64,000 nucleotides of DNA, taken from a virus. Within the stretch, counting starts at the first letter, position 1, and every line of letters starts with the position of its first letter. The position numbers and the translations under genes were made by a program. Below are positions 4,069 through 32,387 of the stretch, in pieces. Location of the stretch: IMG/VR virus record IMGVR_UViG_3300038393_001444, positions 1-64,000 of that record; one strand, given 5' to 3'. Under the pieces are notes generated by a model. The model saw only the letters and a program-made list of their open reading frames with translations, was not told the origin of the DNA and ran no database searches.

Positions 4069-4599
4069 TTACTTCGCCTTGTGCTGGGTGCCCTTCAAGT
4101 GGGCGTCCAGCTTCTTCACCTTTTCGATCGCTTCGGTGATGTTCTCGCCATCCTTCACGGCGCGCTGGGCGATCCAGATCGGGAAGGTCAGATCGTGGAT
4201 GCCGATGTTGACGCCGCGATGGTGGCCGCCGGGGATCTCGACGCCATCGATCGTGTGGCTGCCGCAGAGCACCACGAGATTGCGGATATCGTCGGGCGAC
4301 TCGATCGGCTTGTCGCCCAGCTGGTGGGTGTAGCCGTAGGGATCGAACACGTGCAGGGTGTCGAGCACCTTTTCCGGGTCCAGCTTGCCCCAAAGGGCCC
4401 ATTCGTGGATATGGTGCACTTCGCGCGCCTCGCGGCTGCCGCAGCACCAGCACGGCAGATCCAGCTGCCGGACCATCTGGCGCTTGTTCTTGCGGAATTC
4501 TGCGCTCTCGGTGCGCGCCTCGTGCGCATCGTAGTCCACGACTTCGGTGAGGGTGTGGCGCTGTTCGTGCGCCGCCGTGATCGATTTCTCTTCGGCCAT
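4069..4599 (-). CDS. HNH-like nuclease
   Basis: CWCCG...EVHHI...NLVVLC..H...HH...GIH; start reassigned to ATG 4599 (GGAG SD, downstream of late motif). Confidence 0.65.
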   Translation of the reverse strand: MAEEKSITAAHEQRHTLTEVVDYDAHEARTESAEFRKNKRQMVRQLDLPCWCCGSREAREVHHIHEWALWGKLDPEKVLDTLHVFDPYGYTHQLGDKPIESPDDIRNLVVLCGSHTIDGVEIPGGHHRGVNIGIHDLTFPIWIAQRAVKDGENITEAIEKVKKLDAHLKGTQHKAK

Positions 4600-4628
4600 T
4601 TGCCGCTCCATTTGGTTTCGGTGCGGCA

Positions 4629-4643
4629 AGTCTGCAATCACGA
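4629..4643 (-). promoter_or_regulatory. putative late promoter TCGTGATTGCAGACT
   Basis: Matches the TCGTGAYnnnAnnnT consensus; divergent pair. Confidence 0.75.
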
Positions 4644-4647
4644 ACCG

Positions 4648-4662
4648 TCGTGATCCTATCCT
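4648..4662 (+). promoter_or_regulatory. putative late promoter TCGTGATCCTATCCT
   Basis: Consensus match, intergenic. Confidence 0.75.
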
Positions 4663-4692
4663 TGCGGAAACCATCTATCCCGCGAGGCTCCT

Positions 4693-4962
4693 ATGTTCCC
4701 GTCCCTGAATTCCCAGCTGGCGATCAACACGCCGACCGTGGTCAAGCCGCAGGCTGGCCGCATCATGAAGGTGTCCGTCCTGGTGGCTGGAACTGCCGCC
4801 GGCGGCGTCTATGACTCCCAGACCACCAGCGCCGCCGCCCTGCAGAATCAGGTGGCGGTGATCCCGGCCGCGATCGCGGTGATCGATCTGCAATTCCAGT
4901 GCCGAAATGGCATCACCGTGGTGCCGGGCACGGGCCAGACGCTGGCCGTTTCGTTCGCCTAA
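4693..4962 (+). CDS. small beta-rich protein, probably virion-associated
   Basis: A/V/T/G-rich composition; own late motif; GAGG SD. Confidence 0.6.
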   Translation: MFPSLNSQLAINTPTVVKPQAGRIMKVSVLVAGTAAGGVYDSQTTSAAALQNQVAVIPAAIAVIDLQFQCRNGITVVPGTGQTLAVSFA

Positions 4963-4972
4963 AACCGCATCG

Positions 4973-4987
4973 TCGTGACGTTACCCT
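4973..4987 (+). promoter_or_regulatory. putative late promoter TCGTGACGTTACCCT
   Basis: Consensus match, intergenic. Confidence 0.75.
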
Positions 4988-5011: not shown

Positions 5012-8000
5012 ATGCTCGATCTCTCTGCTGGCCTGTCCGGGCCGATCCTGTTTCTGAAGGCCACGCAAAAGAAACAGGTGTTCATTCCCGCCTTTGTCCG
5101 CGCCGATGGCACTCCGGTGGCAGGGCACTACAAGTCGGTCCACGTTACCGACGATCACGATGATCACAAGGTAGCGCACGGGCAGGGCTCGCACAGCCAG
5201 AAGATCGCCCACGCGAAGCTGGCGCAGCACGATTGGTTCCACGCGCTGCCGACCGAGCACAAGGCCGCGATCGTGATGGCGCATGCCACGGATCATCAGG
5301 ACATGGATTCGGCCAATGCGCGCGCCTCCACGCTGAAGAAGAAGATCCTGGCCGGCGAAAAGCCGACGCCGTCCGAGTGGCGCGCCTGGGGCTATGTCGA
5401 GGCCGACAAGCGCCAGAAGCTCTACGATGAGATCACCGAAGCCGGGCAGGGCCCGTTCTTCCAATCCGCCATGGATGCGGACGCCGTGGCCAAGGGCGTC
5501 GAAGCCCGGAAAGAGCGCCTGGAGCATCAGCCCGCCGCGCCGGCCGACGTGAAGGCCGCCGAGCAGCCCAAGGAAGAGCCCAAGGCCGAGGAAAAGCAGC
5601 CCGAGCCGGCCGCAGCGCCCGAAGCGCCGAAGGCCGAGGACAAGCCCGCCGCGCCCGCGCAGGAGCCCGCCAAGGCCGCCGCCGGCGGCGAGCATGCGGA
5701 CTTCCTGGCCAAGCTGCATGCCGCCGCGCTGCCGCCCGAGAACGTCAATGCGTCCTCGTTCAACCTGAAGCTCAAGCTGATCCAGCAAGCCTTCGAAATA
5801 GGCGATGCCAAGACGCTGCTGGGCATGTCCTACGGCACGAACACCTACGGCAAGAAAGCTGCCAAGCTGGTGAATGAGGCCCTGGCCGTGCTCGGCCATG
5901 AGCACAAGGTCGAGCCGGGGCAGAAGGCTGGCGCGCATCCCGCGCTGGCCGGAGATCTGTCGCCGAAAGCCGAAAAGGAGCCGCCCAAGGATGAACCGAA
6001 GCCCGCAGAGCCGGCCCCAGCGCCGCAAGCAGCCGAGAGCGCGCAGCCCGAGAAAGCCGAAGCCGCTGCCGAGCCCGCCCCGGCTGCCGAACCCGTAGCC
6101 GAAGCGCCGGCCGCGAGCGAAACGGGAAATCCCGTTTTGGCCGATTCTCAAGCAAACGGCACGCTGGCCATGCCCGAGTTCGAAGAGGGCAAGGAAAAGG
6201 CCGGCGTCAAGGATTACTACGAGAAGGTCGCGCAAAAGATTATCGACCACGCCAGCGCCGGGAATGTCGCTGTGCTGGAGGATATGAAAGACGCGGGCCT
6301 GAAGCCGAACAAGAACGGCAAGGTCGGCAACACGTGGAAGGGAAAAACCGGCAACAGCAAGAAGCTGCTGGAGCTCTATGACGCCGCGCTGGCGCATGCG
6401 AAGGGGGAAGGCGCTGCCGCCGCCCCTGCCGCGCCCGCTGCCGTGGACGATGGCCCGAAGGAAGGCGATACCAAGACCGCCGCTGATGGCGGAACGCTGG
6501 TGCTGAAAGACGGCCACTGGATCAAGCAGGAAGAGCCGCAGGCGGCTGCCGCGCCGGGACCGCATGACGAACTGCTGGGGCAGGCCAAGGCCGCCGGCTT
6601 CGAAGTGAAGGTGAGCGGCATTCATGGAGTGGTGCTGGCCAATGGCAGCGGCATCATGAAAATGTATGCCAACAAGACGCAGGCCGAAAACGCCGTCCAG
6701 AACCTGAAGCAGAGCGGTTTCGATGCGCACGTGATCGGCCAGCATCCGTTCGCGGTCAAGATCACGGGCAAGGCGGCCGAGCCCGCGCCGGTGCTGGATG
6801 CGCCTGCTGCCGCGACCGACAAGGCCGCCAAGCATTACGTGCTGGATGCCGAGAATGCCGCCGCCAAAAAGGGATTGGTCGGCCAAGCCATGACCGCGCA
6901 CGTGTACGAGGCCGCGAAGCAGTGGCTCGATGCGCACCCGGGCAAGCTGGAAGAGCTCAATGCTGGGCTGGACGCGCTGGGTTATGCCAAGTTCCCCGAG
7001 CCGGCTGCCGCTGCCGCGCCAGCCGCGCCGGTCCCGCTGACCGACGCCGAGATCGGCGACAAGCCCAGCGGCGTGAACACTGATTTTTTCAACTCCGCGA
7101 AGAAGGCCGCGCTGGCCGGCGATCTGGCTGGGCTCAAAAAGCTGGCGCAGACCGCGCTGGACGAAAGCTATCCGAACACGGCGAACCATCTGCAGGGCAT
7201 GGCGGCCGCGCTCGAGGCCAAGCAGGGCGGCGCGCAGCCGGCCGGTGTCGATGAGAAAGCCGAGCAGGCCGCGATCACGATGGGCGAGAAGATGGCCGCT
7301 GACGGCGAGCTCGCGGATCTGGCCGAACTGATCCAGAACACGAAGGGCACGGTTTCCGATATCGCGCACAAGTACCTGCAGAAGCTGCTGGGCGATGCGA
7401 AAGACAAGCTGGCCGCCGAGGCTGCTGCCGCCGCCGGCAAAGAGCCGCCGAAGCCGACCGTCGCGCCGTCGCTGCAGAGCATTGTCGATGATGCGAAGTG
7501 GGCCTATGACAACGGCGAGCATCAAACGCTGTCCGATATCGCCGATTACGTGAAGGATCTCGATACCAGCGCCGACGCGCCGAAGATCCAGCAGTATGTC
7601 GCTGCGCTGCAGGGCCTGCAGAAGCCCGCGCGCCATGAGAAGCCGGCCGCGCAGCTCGCGCCGGAAGCCGCCCCAGCTGCGCCCGCCGCCAAGCCTTCGA
7701 TCACCCTGGCGGATCTGCCGTCGATCCCGGTGCTGAACCTGCAGAAGAACAAGGATCTGGCCGAGCACATGCAGCAGCTGGCGCTGGCCGGCGATCTGGC
7801 CGGGATTCAGGCGCTGCAGCAGACCGACAAGGTGAAGAACATCGGCAAGCTGTCGGGCTATTCGTACCAGCTGACGCAAGCGCTGATGCAGAAGGGCATC
7901 GTGACGCCGGTTCCTGGTGCTGACGCCGCACCCGCTGCCGATCAGGGCCCGAAGGATGGCGACACGAAGCAGGGCGCGAACGGCATGCTGGTGTTCAAGG

Positions 8001-10384
8001 ATGGTCGCTGGCACAAGATGGGCGACGATCCGAAGGTGCTCGCTGCCAAGGCCAATTCCATCGGCATGCCGAAGCTCACCGGCACGGCATCGATCAAGCT
8101 GACCAAGGTAATGAAGGGCCTGAAGGAAATCGCCAAGGAAGGCGGCGAGAAGGGCCTGAAGCTGGCGGTGAAGGAAATTGGCTCTTCGATACAAGTGTCG
8201 GCCGGCGGCTACACATTCAAATTCAACAAGGATCTGTCCGGATCGGGCCCGAATGGCAAGGCCGCAGGCCAGTACATCATGAACCTGATGGCCGCCATGG
8301 AAGGAACGAGCGGCCCGGTCGCGCCGAAGGTGGTGGGCGCATCGTCCTACGATCCGGCCGCCGCCGGCGAAGCGGCTGCCGCGCAGGAAGCCGCCGACAT
8401 GCAGGCCAAGTCTGCCGGCAAGGGCACGGCCGCGCCGATCGCCGGCAACAAGACCGAAAAGCTGGGCAAGGTGTCGGTGATGATCGCCGATGGCTGGGAG
8501 CAGACGGGCCCGCAGGGCGGCTCCAATCCTGGCGGCCGCTTCAAGGATGCGAAAGGGCAGGAATGGTATATCAAGCTGCCCAGCGATCCGGATACCGTCA
8601 AGAATGAAATGCTGGCGGCGAAGTTCTACGAAATGCTCGGCGCGAAGGTGCCGCAGCTGCGGCTGGTCAAGAAGGACGGCAAGCTGGGCATCGCGTCGAA
8701 GTGGGTCGATGGCATCAAGAAGGGCAGCGCCGAGCAGCTGGCGGCCGCCGATGGTGCGCACTCCGGGCATGTGTTCGATGCGTGGCTGGCCAATTGGGAC
8801 GTGGTCGGCCTGTCCAACGACAACCTGATGCTGGACAAGGATGGCAAGGCGCTGCGCGTCGACGTGGGCGGCTCGCTGGTCTACCGCGCCATGGGGAGCA
8901 AGAAGGGCGCGGCCTTCGGCAACGAAGTCACCGAGCTCGAAACGCTGCTGGATCACGGCAAGAACAGCAAGAGCGCCGCCGTGTTCGCCGGCATTTCCAA
9001 GGCATCGATCGACGCTGGCGCGAAGCAGCTGGCGAAGATGCACCCGAGCCAGATCGATACCCTGGTCGATATGTTCGGCCCGGGCAGCGACGCGGAAAAA
9101 GCCGAGCTCGCGCAGAAGCTCAAGGCGCGCCGCGAATTCATCCTGAAGAAGCTGGGCGTCGATGATCCCTGGAACAAGCCGGCCCCGGATCTCTCGAAGC
9201 TGCCGGTCAATCCGGACGATATGCCGCCGCCGATCAACTTCAGCGACTACATGGGCAGCGGCAAGGGCCTGTCATCGAAGGAGCACATCAACAAGCAGAA
9301 CACGATCGATGATGCGAACCTGATCGCCTTCGCCAAGCAGGGCAACCTGAAGGCGCTGCAGGACTACCATTACGATGCCTACGACAAGGAAACGGGCAAG
9401 TTCATCGGCAAGAAGCCGATCGGCGAGCATCCGAACAAGGATATCAAGAACCATTGGGCGTCCCTGTGCGATCTGCTGACGTCGGTGGCGCACCCGCCGG
9501 TTGAGGGCCTGGATCTGCCGCCGATCGGTGGCGGCTCGATCGAGGAAGTCGCCGAGCAGGCCGGCTACTTCAAGCCGGGCGAGAACATCAAGACGATCTC
9601 TGCCGAAAAAGTCGTGGGCTTCTGGATGAAGCTGGGCCACGTCGGCGCGGAAGCGGTGGCGGATCTGATGCCGCAGAAGCCGCGCTTCCTGAAGGGCGAT
9701 TTCGTGACGAAGGCGAAGCAGTGGTACAAGGCCGCCAGCGAAACCACGAAGGCCCTGGTCAACTCGATTCAGGATTCCGGCCATTACAACCGCTTCTGGA
9801 ACAACGGCGACAAGCACATCAGCATCAGCTCCGGCGGCCATAAGTACAGCGGCGGCGCGCAGACGCTGGCCAGCCAGATCTATCAGGAAGCCTTCGAATT
9901 CGATGAAGGTGAGACGATCGGCCGCTGGATGAACCTGTCGGAAGGCATGAAGCAGCAGCTGCTCAAGGAAGGCCCGGGGCTGGTATTCCAGAACGCCGAT
10001 TCCATGTGCGCATCGATCTTCAAGGATTGGGGCGACAACGCCAAGTTCGGTTCCGGCGCATTCCTCAACATCAAGTTCGCCAAGGGCGCGAAGGCGATGG
10101 CCTCGCTGGGCTCCGGCCGCTTCAAGGGCACGGGCCAAGACAAGGATGGCAACTATATCCATTCGGGCGGCGGCGGCGAAATGGAAGTCACGACGCTCAT
10201 GGGGCAGCGGTTCGTGGTGCTGGGCATCAAGCAGGGCAATGCCTCGAGCCCGAACGGCATCACCCTGGATCTGCTGGCGCTGCCGCCGCATGAAGGCTAC
10301 GTGGCCGAGCTCGGACAGCAGGCCGCGATGGGCAAATCGCTGACGGATGGCGTGTTATTATTCTTGAAAAGCAAGGGAAACTGA
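5012..10384 (+). CDS. 1790-aa polyvalent protein: repeats and linkers, HipA/PI3-4K-like kinase domain, C-terminal VIP2/Alt-like ADP-ribosyltransferase domain
   Basis: GGSNPGG..WYIK..NEMLA..DAWLANWD..DN..RVDVG kinase pattern; R...SMCAS...LNIKFAKGAKA...EMEV...GQRFVV ART pattern. Confidence 0.75.
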   Translation: MLDLSAGLSGPILFLKATQKKQVFIPAFVRADGTPVAGHYKSVHVTDDHDDHKVAHGQGSHSQKIAHAKLAQHDWFHALPTEHKAAIVMAHATDHQDMDSANARASTLKKKILAGEKPTPSEWRAWGYVEADKRQKLYDEITEAGQGPFFQSAMDADAVAKGVEARKERLEHQPAAPADVKAAEQPKEEPKAEEKQPEPAAAPEAPKAEDKPAAPAQEPAKAAAGGEHADFLAKLHAAALPPENVNASSFNLKLKLIQQAFEIGDAKTLLGMSYGTNTYGKKAAKLVNEALAVLGHEHKVEPGQKAGAHPALAGDLSPKAEKEPPKDEPKPAEPAPAPQAAESAQPEKAEAAAEPAPAAEPVAEAPAASETGNPVLADSQANGTLAMPEFEEGKEKAGVKDYYEKVAQKIIDHASAGNVAVLEDMKDAGLKPNKNGKVGNTWKGKTGNSKKLLELYDAALAHAKGEGAAAAPAAPAAVDDGPKEGDTKTAADGGTLVLKDGHWIKQEEPQAAAAPGPHDELLGQAKAAGFEVKVSGIHGVVLANGSGIMKMYANKTQAENAVQNLKQSGFDAHVIGQHPFAVKITGKAAEPAPVLDAPAAATDKAAKHYVLDAENAAAKKGLVGQAMTAHVYEAAKQWLDAHPGKLEELNAGLDALGYAKFPEPAAAAAPAAPVPLTDAEIGDKPSGVNTDFFNSAKKAALAGDLAGLKKLAQTALDESYPNTANHLQGMAAALEAKQGGAQPAGVDEKAEQAAITMGEKMAADGELADLAELIQNTKGTVSDIAHKYLQKLLGDAKDKLAAEAAAAAGKEPPKPTVAPSLQSIVDDAKWAYDNGEHQTLSDIADYVKDLDTSADAPKIQQYVAALQGLQKPARHEKPAAQLAPEAAPAAPAAKPSITLADLPSIPVLNLQKNKDLAEHMQQLALAGDLAGIQALQQTDKVKNIGKLSGYSYQLTQALMQKGIVTPVPGADAAPAADQGPKDGDTKQGANGMLVFKDGRWHKMGDDPKVLAAKANSIGMPKLTGTASIKLTKVMKGLKEIAKEGGEKGLKLAVKEIGSSIQVSAGGYTFKFNKDLSGSGPNGKAAGQYIMNLMAAMEGTSGPVAPKVVGASSYDPAAAGEAAAAQEAADMQAKSAGKGTAAPIAGNKTEKLGKVSVMIADGWEQTGPQGGSNPGGRFKDAKGQEWYIKLPSDPDTVKNEMLAAKFYEMLGAKVPQLRLVKKDGKLGIASKWVDGIKKGSAEQLAAADGAHSGHVFDAWLANWDVVGLSNDNLMLDKDGKALRVDVGGSLVYRAMGSKKGAAFGNEVTELETLLDHGKNSKSAAVFAGISKASIDAGAKQLAKMHPSQIDTLVDMFGPGSDAEKAELAQKLKARREFILKKLGVDDPWNKPAPDLSKLPVNPDDMPPPINFSDYMGSGKGLSSKEHINKQNTIDDANLIAFAKQGNLKALQDYHYDAYDKETGKFIGKKPIGEHPNKDIKNHWASLCDLLTSVAHPPVEGLDLPPIGGGSIEEVAEQAGYFKPGENIKTISAEKVVGFWMKLGHVGAEAVADLMPQKPRFLKGDFVTKAKQWYKAASETTKALVNSIQDSGHYNRFWNNGDKHISISSGGHKYSGGAQTLASQIYQEAFEFDEGETIGRWMNLSEGMKQQLLKEGPGLVFQNADSMCASIFKDWGDNAKFGSGAFLNIKFAKGAKAMASLGSGRFKGTGQDKDGNYIHSGGGGEMEVTTLMGQRFVVLGIKQGNASSPNGITLDLLALPPHEGYVAELGQQAAMGKSLTDGVLLFLKSKGN

Positions 10385-10386
10385 TC

Positions 10387-10884
10387 ATGGAACAGCAGCA
10401 CAACATGCCGGAAAAGCTCACCGAAATGCCGCCATCGTTCGGCGCGCAGCTGGGCGGCAACTATCTCGGCAGCCCGACCGTGGTCAGCGGCATCCTCGAG
10501 CGCTTCATCACCGAGATCGTGCAGTGGGTGAAGGAGCGCCATGAGGGCGTTCTTTCCGCCCATGAAATGACGGCGCAAGCCTACGAGCGCAGCAAGGAAT
10601 TCGCGCGGATCTTTTCCGGCGAAGATCCTGGCTACATGCCGATCGTCGGCTGGAATTCGCGCGTGGGCGGCCTGCAGGAGTACCTGAAAACGGATCTCGG
10701 CCATTACTGGCAGTCGCAGCGCGCCTCGCACGGCGACGATCCCTATGCGGTGTTCTATGGCTGGCTGCTGTGGGCGGTGGTGGATGCCTTCAGCAAGTCC
10801 GAGGATGATGACCTTGTGAACGCCACGATGGCCGCGCGCATCCAGCAGGCGATCCGGCTGCTCACGGGCACGAACCGCCGCTGA
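10387..10884 (+). CDS. hypothetical helical protein, candidate partner or inhibitor of the upstream enzyme
   Basis: Starts 2 nt after the upstream stop; typical codon usage. Confidence 0.7.
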   Translation: MEQQHNMPEKLTEMPPSFGAQLGGNYLGSPTVVSGILERFITEIVQWVKERHEGVLSAHEMTAQAYERSKEFARIFSGEDPGYMPIVGWNSRVGGLQEYLKTDLGHYWQSQRASHGDDPYAVFYGWLLWAVVDAFSKSEDDDLVNATMAARIQQAIRLLTGTNRR

Positions 10885-10899
10885 TCGTGACTGTAGGCT
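10885..10899 (+). promoter_or_regulatory. putative late promoter TCGTGACTGTAGGCT
   Basis: Consensus match, intergenic. Confidence 0.75.
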
Positions 10900-10929: not shown

Positions 10930-11928
10930 GTGCTGCTACTCTTCAAATCCCACGTCAAGGGCTATACGCGCGCCGATGGCACGTATGTGCCGCCGCATGA
11001 AACCAAGGTAGTCAAGAAAGCGCCCGCGCCGCAGAAGGCGCTGTTCGATCACAAGGCCCCGCTGCCGGCGGAAGCCTATGCCGGCAAGGATCTGCCTGCC
11101 GCCGCCGCGCCGAAGAGCGTGGCATCCGCGCACATGGAGCAGATCAAGAGCGCGCTGCAGCAGCCCAAGGCGAAGAAGTGGGTGAACTCCCTGCACTCCG
11201 GCAAGCAATTCGGCAAGGACAGCGCCGGCGAGAGCAAGGGCGCGTATCAGGGCGGCCTGTTCGGTGGCCACAAGGGCTACGAAAAGGAAAAGCCGCACTA
11301 CCCGAACGCGATCACGCATCCGCAGGCCGGCGACAAGGGCGAGCCGATCCAGATCAACGAGCCGAGCAAGCCATCCCTGGCCGAAACCTGGGAAGATCCG
11401 GACGCCACGGCCACGTTCGTGCCGGGCTCGGCGGTGCCGCGCGAGCTCAACGGCGTGGCCATGCAGACGTGGGCCGATGCGCCGACCACGGATATCGAGT
11501 GGAACAATGTGCCCGGGCAGGACATGGATCTGGAAGAGCCGGAGTTCATCCTGCCCAAGGGCAAGAAAGCCGCCGCCGGCGTGATCATCGAAGAGCCGGA
11601 CGGCCGCGTGTGGCTGCTGCGCCCGACCAATGGCTTCGGCGGCTACGACGCCACGTTCCCGAAGGGCCGCATCGATCCCGGCATCGGCATGCAGGCCAGC
11701 GCCATCAAGGAAGCTTTCGAGGAAACCGGGCTGCAGGTGGAGATCACCGGGTTCGTGTGCGATATCGAGCGCAGCGTCACGATGGCCCGCTTCTACCGCG
11801 CGCGCCGCGTCGGCGGAACGCCGAAGGACATGGGCTGGGAAGCGCAGGCGGTGCAGCTGGTGCCCAAGGATGAACTGCATCAGGTGCTCAACACGGAAGT
11901 GGACCGGCATATCGCCAAGCAGGCATGA
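10930..11928 (+). CDS. Nudix hydrolase with long N-terminal extension
   Basis: FPKGRIDPGIGMQASAIKEAFEETGL Nudix box variant; AAAGVII beta-1 strand. Confidence 0.85.
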   Translation: MLLLFKSHVKGYTRADGTYVPPHETKVVKKAPAPQKALFDHKAPLPAEAYAGKDLPAAAAPKSVASAHMEQIKSALQQPKAKKWVNSLHSGKQFGKDSAGESKGAYQGGLFGGHKGYEKEKPHYPNAITHPQAGDKGEPIQINEPSKPSLAETWEDPDATATFVPGSAVPRELNGVAMQTWADAPTTDIEWNNVPGQDMDLEEPEFILPKGKKAAAGVIIEEPDGRVWLLRPTNGFGGYDATFPKGRIDPGIGMQASAIKEAFEETGLQVEITGFVCDIERSVTMARFYRARRVGGTPKDMGWEAQAVQLVPKDELHQVLNTEVDRHIAKQA

Positions 11929-12017: not shown

Positions 12018-12470
12018 ATGTGGATCTCTTTCAATACCGCCTTCCTTTCCATCGTAGAACCGCGCGCCATCGATCTCGTCCCGGGTGAGGGCGATGTGCT
12101 GCTGGTGCGCGCCAGGGTGCGCGGCCATATCGAATCGGTGTTCCCGAACGCGCAGGTGCTGCGCCGCCCGGGCCGCGATTACCTGTACCGCGCCTTCATC
12201 GATCGCGCCACGGTCGCGCAAGTGGTCATGGGCAAGGTGCTCGGCATCCACTACCCGAACTTCAAGGATTCGGTGAAGGATGATGAACTGCACGATGCCT
12301 ACGCCGGCGTCTGGCGCGTCATGTCGCACCTGCAGAAGGTGCGCCCGTATGGCGATGACTCGGCCGCTGCGCGCCGCGCCGAGGATGAGCGCGCCGGTGT
12401 CAAGGGCTTCGCTGCCAAGAAAAAGCCGGCCCGCGCCAAGCGCACGGGCGATCTGTTCGCGGGAGCCTGA
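12018..12470 (+). CDS. hypothetical phage protein (MWI...FLSIV...DYLYRA...YPNFK)
   Basis: GGAG SD; first gene after the promoter. Confidence 0.75.
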   Translation: MWISFNTAFLSIVEPRAIDLVPGEGDVLLVRARVRGHIESVFPNAQVLRRPGRDYLYRAFIDRATVAQVVMGKVLGIHYPNFKDSVKDDELHDAYAGVWRVMSHLQKVRPYGDDSAAARRAEDERAGVKGFAAKKKPARAKRTGDLFAGA

Positions 12471-25784: not shown

Positions 25785-26962
25785 GTTCCCTGCTGCTGGA
25801 CGTCGGCGCGCTGCCGTGCGGTTGCGTCGACCATGCGCTCGAGCACTTTTCGAAAGCGCTATCGGGCGAGGATGGCGAAAGCCCGGATATTTGGGCCAAG
25901 CATGAATCGCCGTTCATCCAGTCGCTGATCGAACTGTTCACCAGCCGGGGCCTGCTGCGCCTGGAAAAGGTGAAGCAGGAGCTCGAAGCCTGGGCGGCCG
26001 GCAAGCGCCACAAGGCCGGCGGCGCGCCGGCGGCGCGGCCGAAGATCCCGGGCCTGCAGTGGACCGACGAAGAAGCGATGCTGGTGAAGGTCTATCTGGA
26101 AAACCTGCCGCCGGAGCAGTTCACCGCCTCGGATTGGGCCCTGGTCGTGGATTATCTGGCGCAGCGCTACTTCCCCAGCAACGTGATCCAGTCCGAAGCC
26201 GAGTGGCTGGCCATGCGCTCGTCCATGATGGGCAAGGTCGCCGCGCACTATGCGGCGGTGGCCGTCACGGTGGCGCAGGCCGATGCGATCCTGGCGGCGC
26301 TGCCGCTGACGGTGGCCGATACGGTCCAGACGTTCGGCTACAAGGGCGCGGCGGTGCAGATCCTCGAGTACGCGCGCGAGCGCTGCTGTGATCAGGTCGT
26401 GCAGCTGTCCGATCAAATGCGGCATCGCATGAAGAAGGTGATCCTCGACTACGAGCAGCAGAAGATCGAAGGCGCGAATCCGCCGGCGGCAGCGCTGGCC
26501 ACGCGCCTGTTCGATGAATTCTCGGCGCTCAACCGCGATTGGCGGCGCATCGCCGTGACCGAAGCCGGCGAGAACGCGAATCAGGGCCTGATCGCCTCGC
26601 TGCCGCTGGGCACCCGGGTGAAGCGCCTCGAGCAGTATCGCGGGGCCTGCCCGTTCTGCAAGAAGATCAACGGCCGGGTGCTGACCGTGGTCGATCCGGC
26701 CAAGCGCAACAAGGACGGCGAGCTCGAAGTCTGGCTGGGCAAGAACAACCTGGGCCGCTCCGGCAGTCCACGGAAGCGCGTCGGCGATGCCTTAGTCGAG
26801 CGCGAGCCGCATGAAAAATGGTGGATTCCGGCCGGTACCGTGCATCCGCACTGTCGCGGCCAGTGGCACGTGCTCACGCCGCCGCCGCCCGGCTCCGATC
26901 CCGGGTTCGCCGCGTGGCTGGACAAGCACGTGCACAAATACAAGGTGGGGCCGCAAGCGTGA
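25781..26962 (+). CDS. MuF/SPP1 gp7-like head morphogenesis protein
   Basis: RRIAVTE...CPFC...HPHCRG; follows portal. Confidence 0.8.
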   Translation: MSSLLLDVGALPCGCVDHALEHFSKALSGEDGESPDIWAKHESPFIQSLIELFTSRGLLRLEKVKQELEAWAAGKRHKAGGAPAARPKIPGLQWTDEEAMLVKVYLENLPPEQFTASDWALVVDYLAQRYFPSNVIQSEAEWLAMRSSMMGKVAAHYAAVAVTVAQADAILAALPLTVADTVQTFGYKGAAVQILEYARERCCDQVVQLSDQMRHRMKKVILDYEQQKIEGANPPAAALATRLFDEFSALNRDWRRIAVTEAGENANQGLIASLPLGTRVKRLEQYRGACPFCKKINGRVLTVVDPAKRNKDGELEVWLGKNNLGRSGSPRKRVGDALVEREPHEKWWIPAGTVHPHCRGQWHVLTPPPPGSDPGFAAWLDKHVHKYKVGPQA

Positions 26963-27456
26963 GCGAAAAACTAACACCGAACGCCGAGCAGCTGGCGCGC
27001 AAGCATCCGATCGCCTACGTGCAGAAGTGGCATGGCCTGGAGCTCGCCATCGAAAACCCGGTCGGCTCGGTGCGCTCGGGTAAGAAGCCGGACGGCACCG
27101 CATGGCATACGACGATGAAGCATGCCTATGGCGAGATCTCCGGCAGCACCGGCGTCGACGGCGATCCGGTCGACGTGTTCCTGGGCCCGGATCTCGAGAG
27201 CGCGGAATTCGTGTACGTGGTGCACCAGCGCCGCGTCGATGACTGGAAAAACTACGACGAGGACAAGGCCATGCTGGGCTTTCCCAGCGAAGCCGCCGCG
27301 CGCATCGCGTTCCTGCGCAATTACGACGATCCGCGCTTCCTGGGCCCGATCACGAAGCTGCCGGTCGCGGAATTCATCCGCAAGGTGCGCGCCACGAAAA
27401 CGCACCCGGCGATGATCAAGTCGCTGCTGCTGTTCTTGCGAGAGAAAGTCAACTAA
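26959..27456 (+). CDS. inorganic pyrophosphatase-like domain protein
   Basis: IENPVGSVR..YG...GVDGDPVDVFLG...DEDKAMLGF. Confidence 0.8.
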   Translation: MSEKLTPNAEQLARKHPIAYVQKWHGLELAIENPVGSVRSGKKPDGTAWHTTMKHAYGEISGSTGVDGDPVDVFLGPDLESAEFVYVVHQRRVDDWKNYDEDKAMLGFPSEAAARIAFLRNYDDPRFLGPITKLPVAEFIRKVRATKTHPAMIKSLLLFLREKVN

Positions 27457-27469
27457 GGAGGAAGGGAAG

Positions 27470-27760
27470 ATGAGCTATTCATTCAGCGCCATCGGCGCAG
27501 ACAAGGAAGCCGCCAAGGCGGCAGTGGTCGAGGAATTCGACAAGCAGGTGCTGGCCTGCCAGCCGATCCATGTGCGCGACCGCGCTGCCGTGATCGCGCA
27601 TGCGCATGCCATGATCGATCTGCTTCCGGACGATCCGAGCAAGGCGGTGCATATCGCCTGCAACGGTTACGTGAGCTCGCCGATCCATGGCGATCCTGCC
27701 GAAGTGCCGCTGTCCGTGGCATCGGCCACCGCCTCGGCATCGCTGATCGAAAGGTCGTGA
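27470..27760 (+). CDS. hypothetical protein
   Basis: Strong AAGGAGG SD. Confidence 0.7.
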   Translation: MSYSFSAIGADKEAAKAAVVEEFDKQVLACQPIHVRDRAAVIAHAHAMIDLLPDDPSKAVHIACNGYVSSPIHGDPAEVPLSVASATASASLIERS

Positions 27761-27833: not shown

Positions 27834-27848
27834 TCGTGACGCCATGCT
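27834..27848 (+). promoter_or_regulatory. putative late promoter TCGTGACGCCATGCT (ATG 6 nt downstream)
   Basis: Consensus match; leaderless geometry. Confidence 0.8.
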
Positions 27849-27854
27849 CGCGGC

Positions 27855-30800
27855 ATGAAAAAGAAGCCGCTGATCCTGTTCATGAAGGCCGCCGATATCC
27901 CTGCTGGAAGCAAATGGATAACGGTGCATCCGAATGGCCCCGACACGAAGGGCCAGCCGGTGCTGGTGCAGCCGGTCGAGCCCGGTTCGCACGTGTTGCA
28001 CGTGATCGGCGGTGCGGGCGGCAAGCTGAATTACATGCGCATCACTTCCACGAAGAGCCCGGAAGATTACGCAAAGGAGTCCGGCGAGCGCGCGAAAGCC
28101 AAGCGCGAGGCCGCCAAGGCGCAGAAGGCTGCCGACAAGGCCGCCGGCGTCCACGAAGCCAAGCAGCAGGCCAAGGCCGAAGTCTCCACGCAACAGCGCG
28201 CCGCCGAGCGCGATTTCATCGATACGGTCGCCAAGGCGATGGGCTGGGACGATTCCGCCCTGGCCTTCGATGAGGCCGCGCATGCGGGCGTGTCCGATGC
28301 CGCGCGCGCCACGGCGCTGCGCCAGCACCACGCCGAGCTCCTGAAGCGCGCCAAGGAAGCGGTGGGCCTGCAGCGCCAGCGCCTGCTGATCGATGCCGAT
28401 GCCCGCAAACAGGCATTCACGGGCGAGACGCCGCTGCATACCGATGATGCGACCAAGCTGGGCGTGTCCGATATCGATCCGGTGCGCCCGAACACCGGCA
28501 AAGGCTTCGATCCGGATTACGCCGGCCGCGCCAAGGACAAGGGCCTCACACCCGAAGCGGCCGAAGCCGAAGCCGCCGAAGTGCAGGGCAAGCAGGCCGC
28601 CGGGGCGAAGGACAAGAGCGTGGCGCAGAAGGTCGCCGAAGAGCTCGCCAAGGTCAACGCCGACAAGCCGGATCTGCCGGCGAAGATCGTGGAAGTCCAG
28701 CAGGCGGTGGATCTGCTGGCTGCGCAGAAGAAGCTGGCGGCGATCCAGCAGGCCGCGCGCGCGGCGAACCAGCAGATCGATGCCAGCCCGGAGCCGCATG
28801 GCTACGTGCTGAAGGTGTCCGACGTCGATCCGGCGGCAGTCGAAAAGGAAGTGCTGGACAAGCTGAACACGGCGAAAACGTCGGCCTTCCTGAAGGCGGC
28901 CGCCGAGACCGGCAAGGAAACGCCGCTCGAGCACCACATTGCCGCCGGGTCGTTCAATTCACTCAACGCGCTGGCGCTGGCCGCCGGCGGCGCGCCGCTC
29001 ATGGACCGCTCGGTGGTCGACGTGCTCGGCGCGGAAGCCTCGGCGCAGATCCTGGCGCGCCGGCTGCGAAAGGATCTCGGGGATGATAAGGCGGATGAAA
29101 TTGCTGACGGCATGGGCGGCTTCCATCTGCAGCACTATCAGGGCCTGCAGGAATCTGTGCTTGCGGACGTGGCAAAGCTGCACGAAACAGCCGCGCAGCT
29201 GGAAATCGATGCTGCCCACGGTCCCGCTGATCTGCTGGTTAAGGCGGAAGCCAATCGCCGCCGCATGGCCGCGCTGGATGAGGCGAACCATCTGCTCGGC
29301 CACGCGCTGGGCGAAATGGAAGCGAACGCGGCGATGGTGTATGCCCTGGGCGAGCCGTCGCGCGATGCGGTGCAGGTATCGCTGGGCAAAACGCCGCTGG
29401 TGTCGGCGATCCAGCAGCTGCGCGCGATCGGCCTGGAAAAGGGCGATTATTCACTGCAACAGGAAGCCGGCAATGCGTTTTTGACCATCCATGCGTCGGG
29501 CATGGATCGGCTCGCGGGCCCGGTGGATGCCGCCGGCCTGGAGCAGGTGCAGCGCAATCTCGGCATCATGAAGGGCAGCGAGGACGAGGATGGCTGGCTG
29601 CCGGAAGGCTTCGACGGCCGCGCCGATCTGGCGCTCAATCTCGAGCCGGGCGTCGCGCCGTCGCTGGCGCAGCCGTTCGATGGCCAAGCCGAAGATCTGC
29701 ACGGCGCGCTGCGCGACTACATCGGCTCGCGCATGGCCGATGGCGATGCGCCGGCCGATATCGTGTCGGATCTGCAGTCGGCCGCGTTCTTCGCCAAAGT
29801 CGGCGCGGATCGGGCGGACGATTACCGCGCCGCCCTGGATGCGGTCGCGCCGAACAAGGGGTCGGATGGCAAGCAAATGGTGCGCGCCGAGCAGCTGGCC
29901 CCGCTGTTCGACAAGTATGCGGACGAGTTCGTGGCGTCGAAGTGGGGCGGCAAGCGCTCCACGCTGAACAAGCAGGGCTTCGAGGCCGATGATCACGCGC
30001 AGGAAGCGCTGCACCGCGCGCTGGCCGCCGAGCCCGCCGGTGTTGCCGCCTACAAGCCGATCGGCGAACTGCACGATGGCGACACGAAGGCGCTGCGCGA
30101 CTACTTCTACAAGCACATCGCCAAGGAATCGCCGGAGCTCGCGGCCATGCGCGCCGAGTATGACGATCACCTGAAGGCCGAGCCGGAAAAAACGGTCGAG
30201 GATCTGTTCGGCGAGATCGCCCCGAATCCGGACTGGCAAGCCTGGGATTCCGCGCGCACGGCGCTGGCCGGCAAGATCAAGCAGAGCGGCCTGAATTGGC
30301 AGGATTACACGAAAACGATGCGCGGGCATCAGAAGGCGTATGAAACGCTGCAGGATCTGATCCGCTCGAAAGTCTCGTCCGAATTCGCCCGGCATTACAA
30401 CACCCTGAAGCCCGATGCGCCGCTGAAGCTGGGCAAGACGGTCGTGCGCGGCAACCTGAATCACCTGGATGCGGTCGATCCCGCCGCCCGGGAAGCGCGC
30501 GTAAAGGCCGAGCGCCAGCTGATCGACACGCTGCGCGAACGGCATGCCGGCAAGTACACGTCCGGCTCGGTGGCCGGCAAGCTGGAAGCTGCGAAGGAAG
30601 CCAAGGCAGCCTTCGAGCAGTCGCAAATGGGCTTCTTCTCGAGCGAGGAAGCGCCGGCGGCGCTGTCCGGCGACGATGGCGATATAGGAAATCCTATATC
30701 GCTCGGCGCGGATGAGCGCCACACGATCGGCCAAGCCGCCGAACACAAGCTGGCCGCGATGATGGGCGTGGTCGGCAAGAATTTCGTGCCGGGGCAGCCG

Positions 30801-32387
30801 ACGAAGCTGTTTGCGGCCTCGATGAGCGGCAAGGATGGCATCAAGCGGCAGCGCGCCATCAAGATGCTGCTGGCGAACAAGCGCATGATCGGCGGCCTGG
30901 GCGTGGGCTCGGGCAAGACCGGCATCGGCCTGGGCGCGTTCGCGCACCTGAAATCCACCGGCAAGGCGAAAAAGGGCCTGTTCGTGGTCCCGTCGATCGT
31001 CCAAGGCCAGTTCGGCGGCGAAGCGCTGCGCTTTCTGAAGGCCGGGCAATTCAACTGGCACTGCCAGCCGGGCGCGTCGCACGAAGAGCGGCTGGCCAGC
31101 TACAAGGATGCCGGCACCGACTTCCACGTGGTCACGCATCAGGCGTTCCGCGATGACGTGCTGAAGCTGGCCGCCAAGCACGAGGGCAGCGATCCGGAAA
31201 AGATCGCCGCCGCGCTCGATGCGATGGATGCCGAAGGCCGGAAACACTACATCAAGGACATCCTCGACAAGGAAGGCATCGGCTTCGATTACGTGATGGC
31301 CGACGAGGGCCATGGCCTGCTGAACCGCGAAGGCAAGGAAAACAGCCGGCTGTCGAACGTGGTGCAGGGCGTCACCGATAGCGCCGAATACTACCTGCAT
31401 GCGTCGGGCGATCCGGTCAAGAACGATGCTTCCGAAGCCTTCGATCTGCTGGCGAAAATGGATGGCAAGCGCTACCACGACCGCGCCGCGTTCATGCGCC
31501 GCTATGGCGGCGATTCCCAGCTGGCCAAGGACGGGCTGCGCCGCGAGCTCGCGCGCTATGCCTATCTGGCGAAGATCACGCCGGACGTCAATGTCACGAA
31601 AACCGAGCGGCATATCGAACTGCACCCGGAGCAGCATGCCGCCCTGGATGCGATCGACCGCGCCGCCGCCAAGGTGCGCATCGCGCGCATGAACGGCGGC
31701 GTGGATCTGCCGGCGCTGCAGGAGCTCTCGCCGGAATCCTTCCACGGTGCGCCCGAAGAGCAGCATGCCGAGATCGCGCAGGCGCTGACGAAGGCGATCG
31801 GCGTGATCAAGAACGCGGCGATCAACCGGGTGATCAACGCGCACCCGAAGAGCGCGAAGCTGGACGATCTGGCGCAGACGGCCGGAGAACGCAAGGGCAA
31901 GCCCGGCGTGGTGTTCGCCCGCTCGCTCGCTGCCGTCGAACAGGCCAAGGCGCGCCTGGAAGCCGCCGGCCATCGCGTGGCGGTGATTACCGGCGCGGAT
32001 AGCGCGAAAGACAAGGGCGCGAAGATCCAGCAATTCAATCCGGACGATGGCGATCGGAAGGCCGATATCGTGATCTGCTCGGACGCCGGCGCGGTCGGCG
32101 CGAACCTGCAATCCGGCTCCTGGCTGTATCAAATGGACACGCCGGACACGGCGATGGTGCATGAGCAGCGCAACGGCCGCATCGCGCGCGTGGGCCAGAA
32201 AAACGACGTGGAATTGATCGATGCGATCGCCAACCATCCGCAGGAGCGGCGCGCGCGCGAGCGGCTGGCGAAGAAGGGAGAACTGCGCCGCGTGGTCACC
32301 GATCCGCTCGATGGCATCGATGACACGGGGCTGGCCGCCTTCCTGAGCGCACAAAACCACGCGCAACAGCAATCGATGCTGTTCTGA
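27855..32387 (+). CDS. large SNF2/SF2 helicase-like ATPase (DarB-like position, no methyltransferase motif seen)
   Basis: GVGSGKT, VVPS, MADEGH, ASGDP, GANLQ, QRNGRIARVGQ. Confidence 0.85.
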   Translation: MKKKPLILFMKAADIPAGSKWITVHPNGPDTKGQPVLVQPVEPGSHVLHVIGGAGGKLNYMRITSTKSPEDYAKESGERAKAKREAAKAQKAADKAAGVHEAKQQAKAEVSTQQRAAERDFIDTVAKAMGWDDSALAFDEAAHAGVSDAARATALRQHHAELLKRAKEAVGLQRQRLLIDADARKQAFTGETPLHTDDATKLGVSDIDPVRPNTGKGFDPDYAGRAKDKGLTPEAAEAEAAEVQGKQAAGAKDKSVAQKVAEELAKVNADKPDLPAKIVEVQQAVDLLAAQKKLAAIQQAARAANQQIDASPEPHGYVLKVSDVDPAAVEKEVLDKLNTAKTSAFLKAAAETGKETPLEHHIAAGSFNSLNALALAAGGAPLMDRSVVDVLGAEASAQILARRLRKDLGDDKADEIADGMGGFHLQHYQGLQESVLADVAKLHETAAQLEIDAAHGPADLLVKAEANRRRMAALDEANHLLGHALGEMEANAAMVYALGEPSRDAVQVSLGKTPLVSAIQQLRAIGLEKGDYSLQQEAGNAFLTIHASGMDRLAGPVDAAGLEQVQRNLGIMKGSEDEDGWLPEGFDGRADLALNLEPGVAPSLAQPFDGQAEDLHGALRDYIGSRMADGDAPADIVSDLQSAAFFAKVGADRADDYRAALDAVAPNKGSDGKQMVRAEQLAPLFDKYADEFVASKWGGKRSTLNKQGFEADDHAQEALHRALAAEPAGVAAYKPIGELHDGDTKALRDYFYKHIAKESPELAAMRAEYDDHLKAEPEKTVEDLFGEIAPNPDWQAWDSARTALAGKIKQSGLNWQDYTKTMRGHQKAYETLQDLIRSKVSSEFARHYNTLKPDAPLKLGKTVVRGNLNHLDAVDPAAREARVKAERQLIDTLRERHAGKYTSGSVAGKLEAAKEAKAAFEQSQMGFFSSEEAPAALSGDDGDIGNPISLGADERHTIGQAAEHKLAAMMGVVGKNFVPGQPTKLFAASMSGKDGIKRQRAIKMLLANKRMIGGLGVGSGKTGIGLGAFAHLKSTGKAKKGLFVVPSIVQGQFGGEALRFLKAGQFNWHCQPGASHEERLASYKDAGTDFHVVTHQAFRDDVLKLAAKHEGSDPEKIAAALDAMDAEGRKHYIKDILDKEGIGFDYVMADEGHGLLNREGKENSRLSNVVQGVTDSAEYYLHASGDPVKNDASEAFDLLAKMDGKRYHDRAAFMRRYGGDSQLAKDGLRRELARYAYLAKITPDVNVTKTERHIELHPEQHAALDAIDRAAAKVRIARMNGGVDLPALQELSPESFHGAPEEQHAEIAQALTKAIGVIKNAAINRVINAHPKSAKLDDLAQTAGERKGKPGVVFARSLAAVEQAKARLEAAGHRVAVITGADSAKDKGAKIQQFNPDDGDRKADIVICSDAGAVGANLQSGSWLYQMDTPDTAMVHEQRNGRIARVGQKNDVELIDAIANHPQERRARERLAKKGELRRVVTDPLDGIDDTGLAAFLSAQNHAQQQSMLF

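Follow-up and report, generated by a model that had tools for sequence, protein, structure and literature searches.

A giant phage protein with kinase-like and ADP-ribosyltransferase domains: a candidate capsid-carried effector with an exchangeable C-terminal cassette

The locus considered here raises the question of whether a single giant phage protein ends in two protein-modifying enzymes and, if so, in which cell these would act. It lies in IMG/VR virus record IMGVR_UViG_3300038393_001444 (94,344 bp in total, rated complete by CheckV), of which the first 64 kb (64,000 nucleotides, G+C approximately 64%) were analyzed and are referred to as the window. The window holds genes for a terminase, portal, head protease, major head protein, tail sheath and fibre, which identifies the record as a myovirus. 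The gene in question, P0001, is an open frame on the plus strand (5012..10384) that encodes a protein of 1790 residues. An earlier note had proposed that the span 8495-10290 (residues 1162-1760) encodes a kinase fused to an ADP-ribosyltransferase (ART) within this giant, late-made protein. The explanation favored here, with a probability of about 60%, is that the giant protein is a polyvalent effector whose kinase, linker and ART domains are made late, loaded into the capsid as cargo and used to modify the next host.

An AlphaFold2 model of the C-terminal module (661 residues), based on an alignment of 42 sequences, has a mean predicted local distance difference test (pLDDT) score of 91.3 and a predicted template modelling (pTM) score of 0.86, values that point to one compact unit. 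Its first domain (8474..9163, + strand; residues 1155-1384, model 26-255) matches the two-lobed fold of atypical protein kinases. The closest solved structure is CtkA of H. pylori (3akk_A; Z-score 16.1, root-mean-square deviation (rmsd) 3.2 Å, 212 residues aligned at 19% identity in VIA-align), followed by Bacillus CotH (5jd9; Z 14.3), PI4KIIalpha (4hne; Z 12.3) and a bacterial Ser/Thr kinase (7vkc; Z 12.0). The earlier note had staked its reading on a kinase fold over residues of about 1160-1385, and the matches to CtkA, CotH and PI4KIIalpha bear this out. Its narrower label of a HipA/PI3-4-kinase-like fold holds for the PI4K-like part but not for strict HipA membership (16 bits against a cut-off of 30.5), with CtkA being the nearest solved relative. 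Across 48 distinct viral relatives of 28-75% identity, which served as the conservation set, residues G1170, N1172, G1174, K1188, E1199, D1256, N1261, D1263, D1270, N1271 and D1284 are invariant (48/48). The Gly-rich loop, strand-3 Lys, helix-C Glu, Asp...Asn and metal Asp fall in the expected order on the strands and helix of the model and, by analogy with the general kinase pattern, D1263 would be the catalytic base and D1284 the metal ligand. By its modelled fold and conserved catalytic pattern, then, the domain is a kinase outside the HipA family. No Pfam or PHROG model covers it, and a Pfam search with the whole giant protein returned HipA_C at residues 1178-1223 alone, below threshold.

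A kinase fold need not imply a protein substrate. PI4K and LepB are precedents for the phosphorylation of lipids or small molecules on this fold, and the kinase-fold protein SidJ regulates the SidE ARTs. The domain might likewise be a small-molecule or lipid kinase, an enzyme of other nucleotide chemistry, or a regulator in cis of the ART to which it is joined. The presence of PI4KIIalpha among the fold matches (Z 12.3), a faint match of the G-loop, Lys and Glu to Legionella LepB (E 0.7) and the naming of viral relatives in BFVD as PI3K/PI4K catalytic domains all lean in this direction, as does the high pTM, which suggests a rigid packing of kinase against ART. This alternative is nonetheless considered unlikely, since both of the structures that match the fold best, CtkA and CotH, belong to protein Ser/Thr kinases, and the complete phosphotransferase set of Lys/Glu/Asp/Asn/Asp is invariant. 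A protein kinase is accordingly the reading carried forward, and the regulatory variant is taken up again below with the distribution of the domain.

The second enzymatic domain (9650..10288, + strand; residues 1547-1759, model 418-630) is an R-S-E clade ART of the C3/VIP2/Alt type. It aligns with C3lim (3bw8_A) at a Z-score of 13.7 and an rmsd of 3.1 Å with 175 of 205 residues aligned (Foldseek E 2e-6), and dozens of chains of C3, iota Ia, Vip2 and CDTa, plus Plx2A, follow at Z 12-13.6 over 170-180 residues. The ART fold anticipated for residues of about 1560-1770 is thus present, with matches to C3, iota Ia, Vip2 and CDTa in the range of Z 12-13.7. Searches of the PDB with the single sequence and with a profile of the full-length alignment gave low-complexity noise only, and domain-only profiles were needed. 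The ART-only profile found, among solved ARTs, Vip2 (E 8.6e-8), Lmo0066 of Listeria (9.4e-8) and SpvB (4e-6), with weaker matches to VsdC, Vis, CDTa and C3larvin; the span from Vip2 to CDTa covers E 9e-8 to 1e-3. In the profile alignment, R1638 is paired with the Arg of the Vip2 Y-R-W motif, C1666-A-S1668 with the Vip2 S-T-S and E1723-x-E1725 with the Vip2 E-K-E, in agreement with the clade to which the earlier note had assigned the domain from its Arg, STS and ExE motifs.

Residues E1723, E1725, S1668 and R1733 of the ART are constant in 48/48 relatives. Position 1638 is an Arg in 38/48 and a Lys in 10/48, while the first position of the STS motif is a Cys in 33/48, including the giant protein, and a Ser in 15/48, with a canonical STS in cousins such as locus L049. 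The CAS sequence had been described as a deviant STS; it is indeed a variant, but one that is a trait of the subfamily. These replacements, along with the ADP-ribose-related Nudix hydrolase that always adjoins the module, might instead point to a glycohydrolase of nicotinamide adenine dinucleotide (NAD+) or a modifier of nucleic acids, as opposed to a protein-arginine ART. Such an activity is judged improbable. The nearest relatives by both sequence and fold (Vip2, C3, iota, CDTa, SpvB and Vis) are protein ARTs, and the invariant ExE is typical of arginine-specific transferases.

Between the two enzymes lies a linker domain (9164..9649, + strand; residues 1385-1546) composed of two long helices and a β-hairpin. 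Modelled separately, it has a pLDDT of 80.8, and a comparison of the linker alone with 48,161 PDB representatives gave a best Z-score of 5.3, with no fold assigned. For the kinase and ART, in turn, the viral structures of BFVD include similar folds, some of them fused to portal, MuF and Nudix proteins; the names of the matching entries are ADP-ribosyltransferase, PI3K/PI4K catalytic domain, Nudix hydrolase, HK97 portal and MuF fusion.

The motifs first picked out by eye in the translation all lie at the residues reported for them: GGSNPGG (1169-1175), WYIK (K1188), NE (E1199), DAWLANWD (1256-1263), DN (1270-1271) and RVDVG (D1284) in the kinase domain, and R1638, SMCAS (1664-1668), KGAKA (1691-1695), E1723-M-E1725 and GQRFVV in the ART. 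That they go beyond chance follows from the retention of the module in 4655 clusters, the near-invariance of the key residues (in sets of 42 and 48 relatives), the confident model and the ART profile match. Both active sites are complete and evolve under purifying selection, so that both catalytic activities are most likely. The same conservation bears on the notion that the two domains are decayed remnants and that the protein serves the virion only as structure or spacer. An N-terminal stretch of more than 1100 residues is mostly rich in Ala, Pro, Lys and Glu and matches no family, as might be expected of a spacer, but the catalytic residues of both domains are invariant among relatives of as little as 28% identity, and this notion is hardly credible.

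The long N-terminal region reads as a largely Ala/Pro/Lys/Glu-rich linker. The whole giant protein finds no family in PHROGs or NCBIfam, no fusion to a MuF or portal domain was detected in the family searches, and a megablast of the giant gene against 50,697 phage records gave zero matches. A mini-motif of the form G-P-K-x-G-D-T-K ... G-(H/R)-W-x-K occurs twice within this region, at residues of about 477-505 and 974-1002 (6440-6526 and 7931-8017, + strand). It is also kept just upstream of the C-terminal module in homologues, and related G-R-W-H-K motifs are found at the N-termini of many of them.

The module itself is widespread. A HMMER search with residues 1130-1790 against 1.84 billion representatives of clusters formed at 50% identity found 4655 proteins at E ≤0.001, of which 1072 reached E ≤1e-30. 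Most of the top matches cover query positions of about 30-640 in one piece and place them at the C-terminus of proteins of about 500-3400 residues, whereas their N-terminal parts vary and include WGR, ART-PolyVal, ADPrib_exo_Tox, InPase, LPD3 and DUF5710 domains. A constant C-terminal module behind variable domains is a signature of polyvalent proteins (PMC5512222), and the giant protein conforms to this class in combining at least two effector domains, shuffled among relatives, in one large phage polypeptide. Isolated phages with the module include Aeromonas phage ST4, Pseudomonas phages Dolphis, Jeremy and Touem01, Escherichia phage ECML-606-1, Enterobacter phage phiT5282EW, Morganella phage Mecenats66 and Yersinia phage fHe-Yen8-01. 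In GenBank the relatives are named 'ADP-ribosyltransferase' or 'hypothetical', never kinase. Gordonia phages carry the kinase part alone, without the ART.

Downstream of the module, a small gene for an acidic protein of 165 residues (10387..10884, + strand) starts 2 nucleotides past the stop codon of the giant gene, and next come a Nudix hydrolase gene (10930..11928, + strand; 332 residues, Pfam NUDIX at residues 213-322 with E 2.8e-12) and the gene for a basic protein of 150 residues, gp150 (12018-12470, + strand). This order of giant, small gene, Nudix and gp150 recurs in approximately 60 related viral loci and in phages ST4 and Dolphis, and the large terminase gene comes next after gp150 wherever the fetched flank extends far enough. 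Nearly all loci retain the Nudix gene after the module. The small gene is present in nearly every one, encodes 132-186 residues (mostly 152-169) and often overlaps the stop codon of the giant gene; a family hidden Markov model confirms its homology in loci as far apart as the most divergent ones. An apparent fusion of the small gene to the giant gene in loci L016, L049 and L052 was rejected, as a stop codon lies between the two. The 165-residue protein has a pI of 5.3 (family median 4.8) and matched no family or fold; the ESM Atlas gave no usable match, and the Atlas model is poor. The 150-residue protein has a pI of 9.9, is 32-61% identical in most related loci and matches no family.

How these parts evolve relative to one another was assessed from the pairwise distances of five of them over 34 loci. 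Distances correlate strongly between linker and ART (0.91), linker and small gene (0.87) and ART and small gene (0.82), and also between kinase and Nudix (0.76), while the correlations across these two groups, kinase with ART (0.40) and ART with Nudix (0.30), are lower. A partial Mantel comparison of small gene and ART, given the kinase, yields r 0.79 (p 0.0005). Within one lineage the kinases are 24-30% apart and the Nudix proteins 17-38%, yet two linker-ART types that look unrelated (72-76% apart) are found, each with its own type of small gene (74-83% apart); this pattern, with kinases under 30% apart, holds for 21 locus pairs, of which ST4/Dolphis is one. As kinase and Nudix are conserved on both flanks of the variable block, its replacement has been that of a single unit. 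The linker, the ART and the 165-residue gene are exchanged as one cassette, and the kinase and Nudix follow the phage backbone.

This joint exchange makes the small protein most likely the cognate partner of the ART, serving as an inhibitor in the producing cell or as a chaperone. A predicted complex of the module with the 165-residue protein scored 0.00 in both runs, which is evidence neither way on binding. A wider view, offered tentatively, is that linker, ART and acidic gene form a diversifying effector-partner cassette set in a conserved kinase-Nudix chassis, in which the logic of polymorphic toxins would operate inside virion cargo. If so, the lineage would keep its kinase and Nudix and, in response to changing host targets or defences, swap the ART warhead along with its inhibitor or chaperone. 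A further role of the kinase might be in acting on the ART, or on what the ART produces, or in gating either.

The Nudix gene is in places joined to the kinase as well. In L067 (open reading frame 6194-7675, 493 residues) and L076 (1043-2485, 480 residues), a second copy of the kinase is found at the C-terminus of the Nudix protein, at 46-49% identity to the kinase of the giant protein, and in L064, L065, L069 and L071 a second copy comes directly after the Nudix. The giant gene holds the full kinase-ART module in L067 and L071 and at least the kinase part in L064 and L065; in L069 and L076 the locus sequence ends upstream, before the module of the giant gene could show. The fusion of kinase to Nudix and their co-divergence would suit nucleotide-derived substrates, a point in favor of the small-molecule alternative raised above. 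These fusions, together with the Gordonia kinases that stand without an ART, nevertheless show that the domain is not merely a regulator of the ART, and a kinase acting in its own right, most probably on protein, is retained as the preferred reading.

The remaining part of the question is when the giant protein would be made and where it would go. The motif TCGTGANNNNA has 22 copies in the window against 6.4 expected, 18 of them on the plus strand and often just after a terminator-like T-run. One copy lies 29 nucleotides upstream of the ATG of the giant gene (4973..4983, +) and a second upstream of the Nudix gene (10885..10895, +); the small gene has none of its own. Others are directly 5' of the terminase (13324), the portal (23634), a helicase-like giant (27834) and other structural genes, and further plus-strand copies are at 27755, 32393, 32865, 36190, 37020, 45175, 54110, 58148 and 61619. 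In this phage group the motif looks like a promoter for late or structural genes and, being common to the giant gene, terminase, portal and other structural genes, it agrees with the description of the protein as late. Directly upstream of the giant gene, an open reading frame of 89 residues (4693-4962, +) that matches no family has its own extended motif, CGTCGTGA...CYTGCGG (4646-4667), a form with two copies only in the window. Immediately upstream of the operon, on the opposite strand, is an HNH endonuclease gene (4069-4674, -). A minus-strand copy of TCGTGANNNNA at 4633-4643 lies inside its predicted start, and the true start of this gene may be further downstream.

The termini of the giant protein bear short tags. 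At the N-terminus, four hydrophobic residues and K-A are followed by R-A-D-G-T-x-V (5042..5110, +), and a near-copy heads the Nudix protein (10933); the R-A-D-G-T-x-V segment is common to giant and Nudix, while the hydrophobic-K-A part is also found at the N-terminus of a helicase-like protein of 1510 residues (27873). Four hydrophobic residues followed by K-[AS] occur at four sites in the proteins of the window against 0.45 expected, all within 25 residues of a terminus, three of them N-terminal (giant, Nudix and 1510-residue protein) and one C-terminal (giant). The last of these belongs to a C-terminal helix and tag, G-K-S ... L-L-F-L-K (10289..10381, +; model helix 632-660), resembling the K-S-L-L-L-F-L-R end of a MuF-like minor head protein (26818-27456, +; phrog_4660, E 1e-24). 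LxK-[AS] sites are also present close to the N-termini of the head protease and the capsid protein. Among homologues, the N-terminal tag is conserved at their N-termini and the C-terminal tag is kept in many. By analogy with the capsid-targeting sequences of T4, the tags may be capsid-targeting or protease-processing signals. The second giant gene (27855-32387, +), with its hydrophobic-K-A tag and a TCGTGA motif at 27834, is flanked by the genes for the MuF-like protein and the head protease. Its product of 1510 residues is DarB-like (phrog_62) in its N-terminal part, ends in an SNF2-type helicase, and is probably another capsid-carried, DarB-like anti-restriction protein.

Packaging of the giant protein is suggested circumstantially by the adjacency of its gene to the terminase, the shared tags and the late promoter-like motif, and its injection by the tags it shares with head proteins. 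In the scheme proposed here, the giant protein would be transcribed together with the head and tail genes and loaded into the procapsid by way of the short terminal tags shared with the Nudix, the MuF-like head protein and the second giant. It would exit the capsid together with the DNA and be active ahead of any phage gene expression, combining ATP-dependent phosphorylation (of the Ser/Thr type) with NAD+-dependent ADP-ribosylation (of the arginine type) of host macromolecules, such that one protein would unite the separate roles of T4 Alt and T7 gp0.7. The tagged Nudix hydrolase would be delivered alongside, and the untagged acidic partner would stay behind. Both activities, the targets, packaging, injection and the role of the partner are inferred in this scheme, whereas the folds, motif pairing, conservation, synteny, cassette exchange, tags and promoter-like motif on which it builds are observed.

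Late expression would fit equally well with a giant protein that is never packaged and instead works inside the cell that makes it, perhaps to counter host defences or to exclude superinfecting phages. Packaging is, after all, deduced, and the giant protein contains no MuF or portal fusion of its own. Such a local role is judged quite unlikely given that the MuF-like head protein has terminal tags in common with the giant protein, with LxK sites also present in the protease and capsid protein, that the gene lies beside the terminase and that virion cargo is the predicted role of polyvalent proteins as a class (PMC5512222, PMC9503650). The lack of a tag on the cognate partner also fits protection of the producer.

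Several observations weigh against a packaged effector with two activities. A profile of the kinase domain found no significant sequence match to any solved kinase in the PDB, and the catalytic mapping therefore rests on fold and conservation without a residue-level alignment. HipA_C (PF07804) scores only 12.5-16 bits against its gathering cut-off of 30.5, over profile positions 16-63, which cover the N-lobe only. In the ART, the Lys variants at position 1638 and the Cys at the head of the STS motif depart from the canonical active site. Physical linkage contributes to the co-variation of ART and partner and alone could yield part of it, and the tags could serve a purpose other than capsid targeting. 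In the literature searched, neither experimental work on the kinase-linker-ART protein family nor a virion proteome of any related phage was found.

Enzymes carried in the capsid act before phage genes are read, and so decide the first minutes of infection. To our knowledge, few of them, such as T4 Alt, have been studied so far. The module described here is highly abundant among phages (over 4600 clusters) and is present in cultivable phages of Aeromonas, Pseudomonas, E. coli, Enterobacter, Morganella and Yersinia. Two different predicted protein-modifying chemistries are paired here with a Nudix hydrolase, and the kinase half of the module is without a family model or a kinase annotation in public records. 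The targets of the module would reveal the host functions or defences that a large myovirus lineage must hit first, and the exchange of its cassette points to the site of an arms race.

Among known systems, the closest is the class of polyvalent proteins of phages and conjugative elements described by Iyer, Burroughs, Anand, de Souza and Aravind in 2017 (PMC5512222), which are likewise giant multi-effector phage proteins with shuffled domains, with genes that adjoin those for packaging and the head and a predicted role as head cargo. The kinase of that class is of the Ser/Thr/Tyr type, lacks a C-lobe, bears a His...Asp motif and is found mainly in phages of Verrucomicrobia and Bacteroidetes (PMC5512222), whereas the kinase here is CtkA/CotH/PI4K-like and belongs to phages of about 90 kb whose isolated relatives infect Proteobacteria. 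CtkA itself (JHP940; 3akk, 3akl and 3akj), the best structural match to residues 1155-1384, is a Ser/Thr kinase also encoded on a mobile element, the integrative and conjugative element tfs3 (PMC5536186). Unlike the domain described here, it is a stand-alone protein of 325 residues, studied as an effector on human cells, and HMMER finds no sequence relationship between the two.

The ART shares with C3, Vip2, iota Ia and CDTa both its fold and its order of motifs, with the Arg on β1 followed by the STS, a K-G-x-K-A resembling the phosphate-nicotinamide (PN) loop and the ExE before a hydrophobic strand. It differs from C3, the binary toxins and Alt in the Cys of its STS motif, its fusion behind a kinase and linker, the absence of a binding or translocation component and its pairing with an acidic gene. 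T4 Alt provides the precedent for an ART carried in the capsid (PMC9503650), and T7 gp0.7 that for a phage kinase serving to take over the host as infection begins (cited in PMC5512222). The resemblance to gp0.7 is functional only: this kinase is of another family and, instead of being packaged, is made early from the genome that has entered the cell. Polymorphic toxin-immunity cassettes resemble the system in that a C-terminal enzyme domain is swapped jointly with the small gene after it between otherwise close lineages; they are secreted bacterial toxins and not phage cargo, and the likeness is one of sequence co-variation. Alt/VIP2-family ARTs and Nudix proteins have already been described as likely packaged (PMC9503650), and the polyvalent cargo class, packaged Alt/VIP2 ARTs and packaged Nudix proteins are thus published (PMC5512222, PMC9503650). 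A fixed unit of CtkA-like kinase, linker and ART in an operon with a small cognate partner and a Nudix gene was not found described in the papers searched. What this locus adds to these known systems is the exchange of the cassette, the fusions of Nudix to a second kinase, the shared terminal tags and a promoter-like motif common with the head genes.

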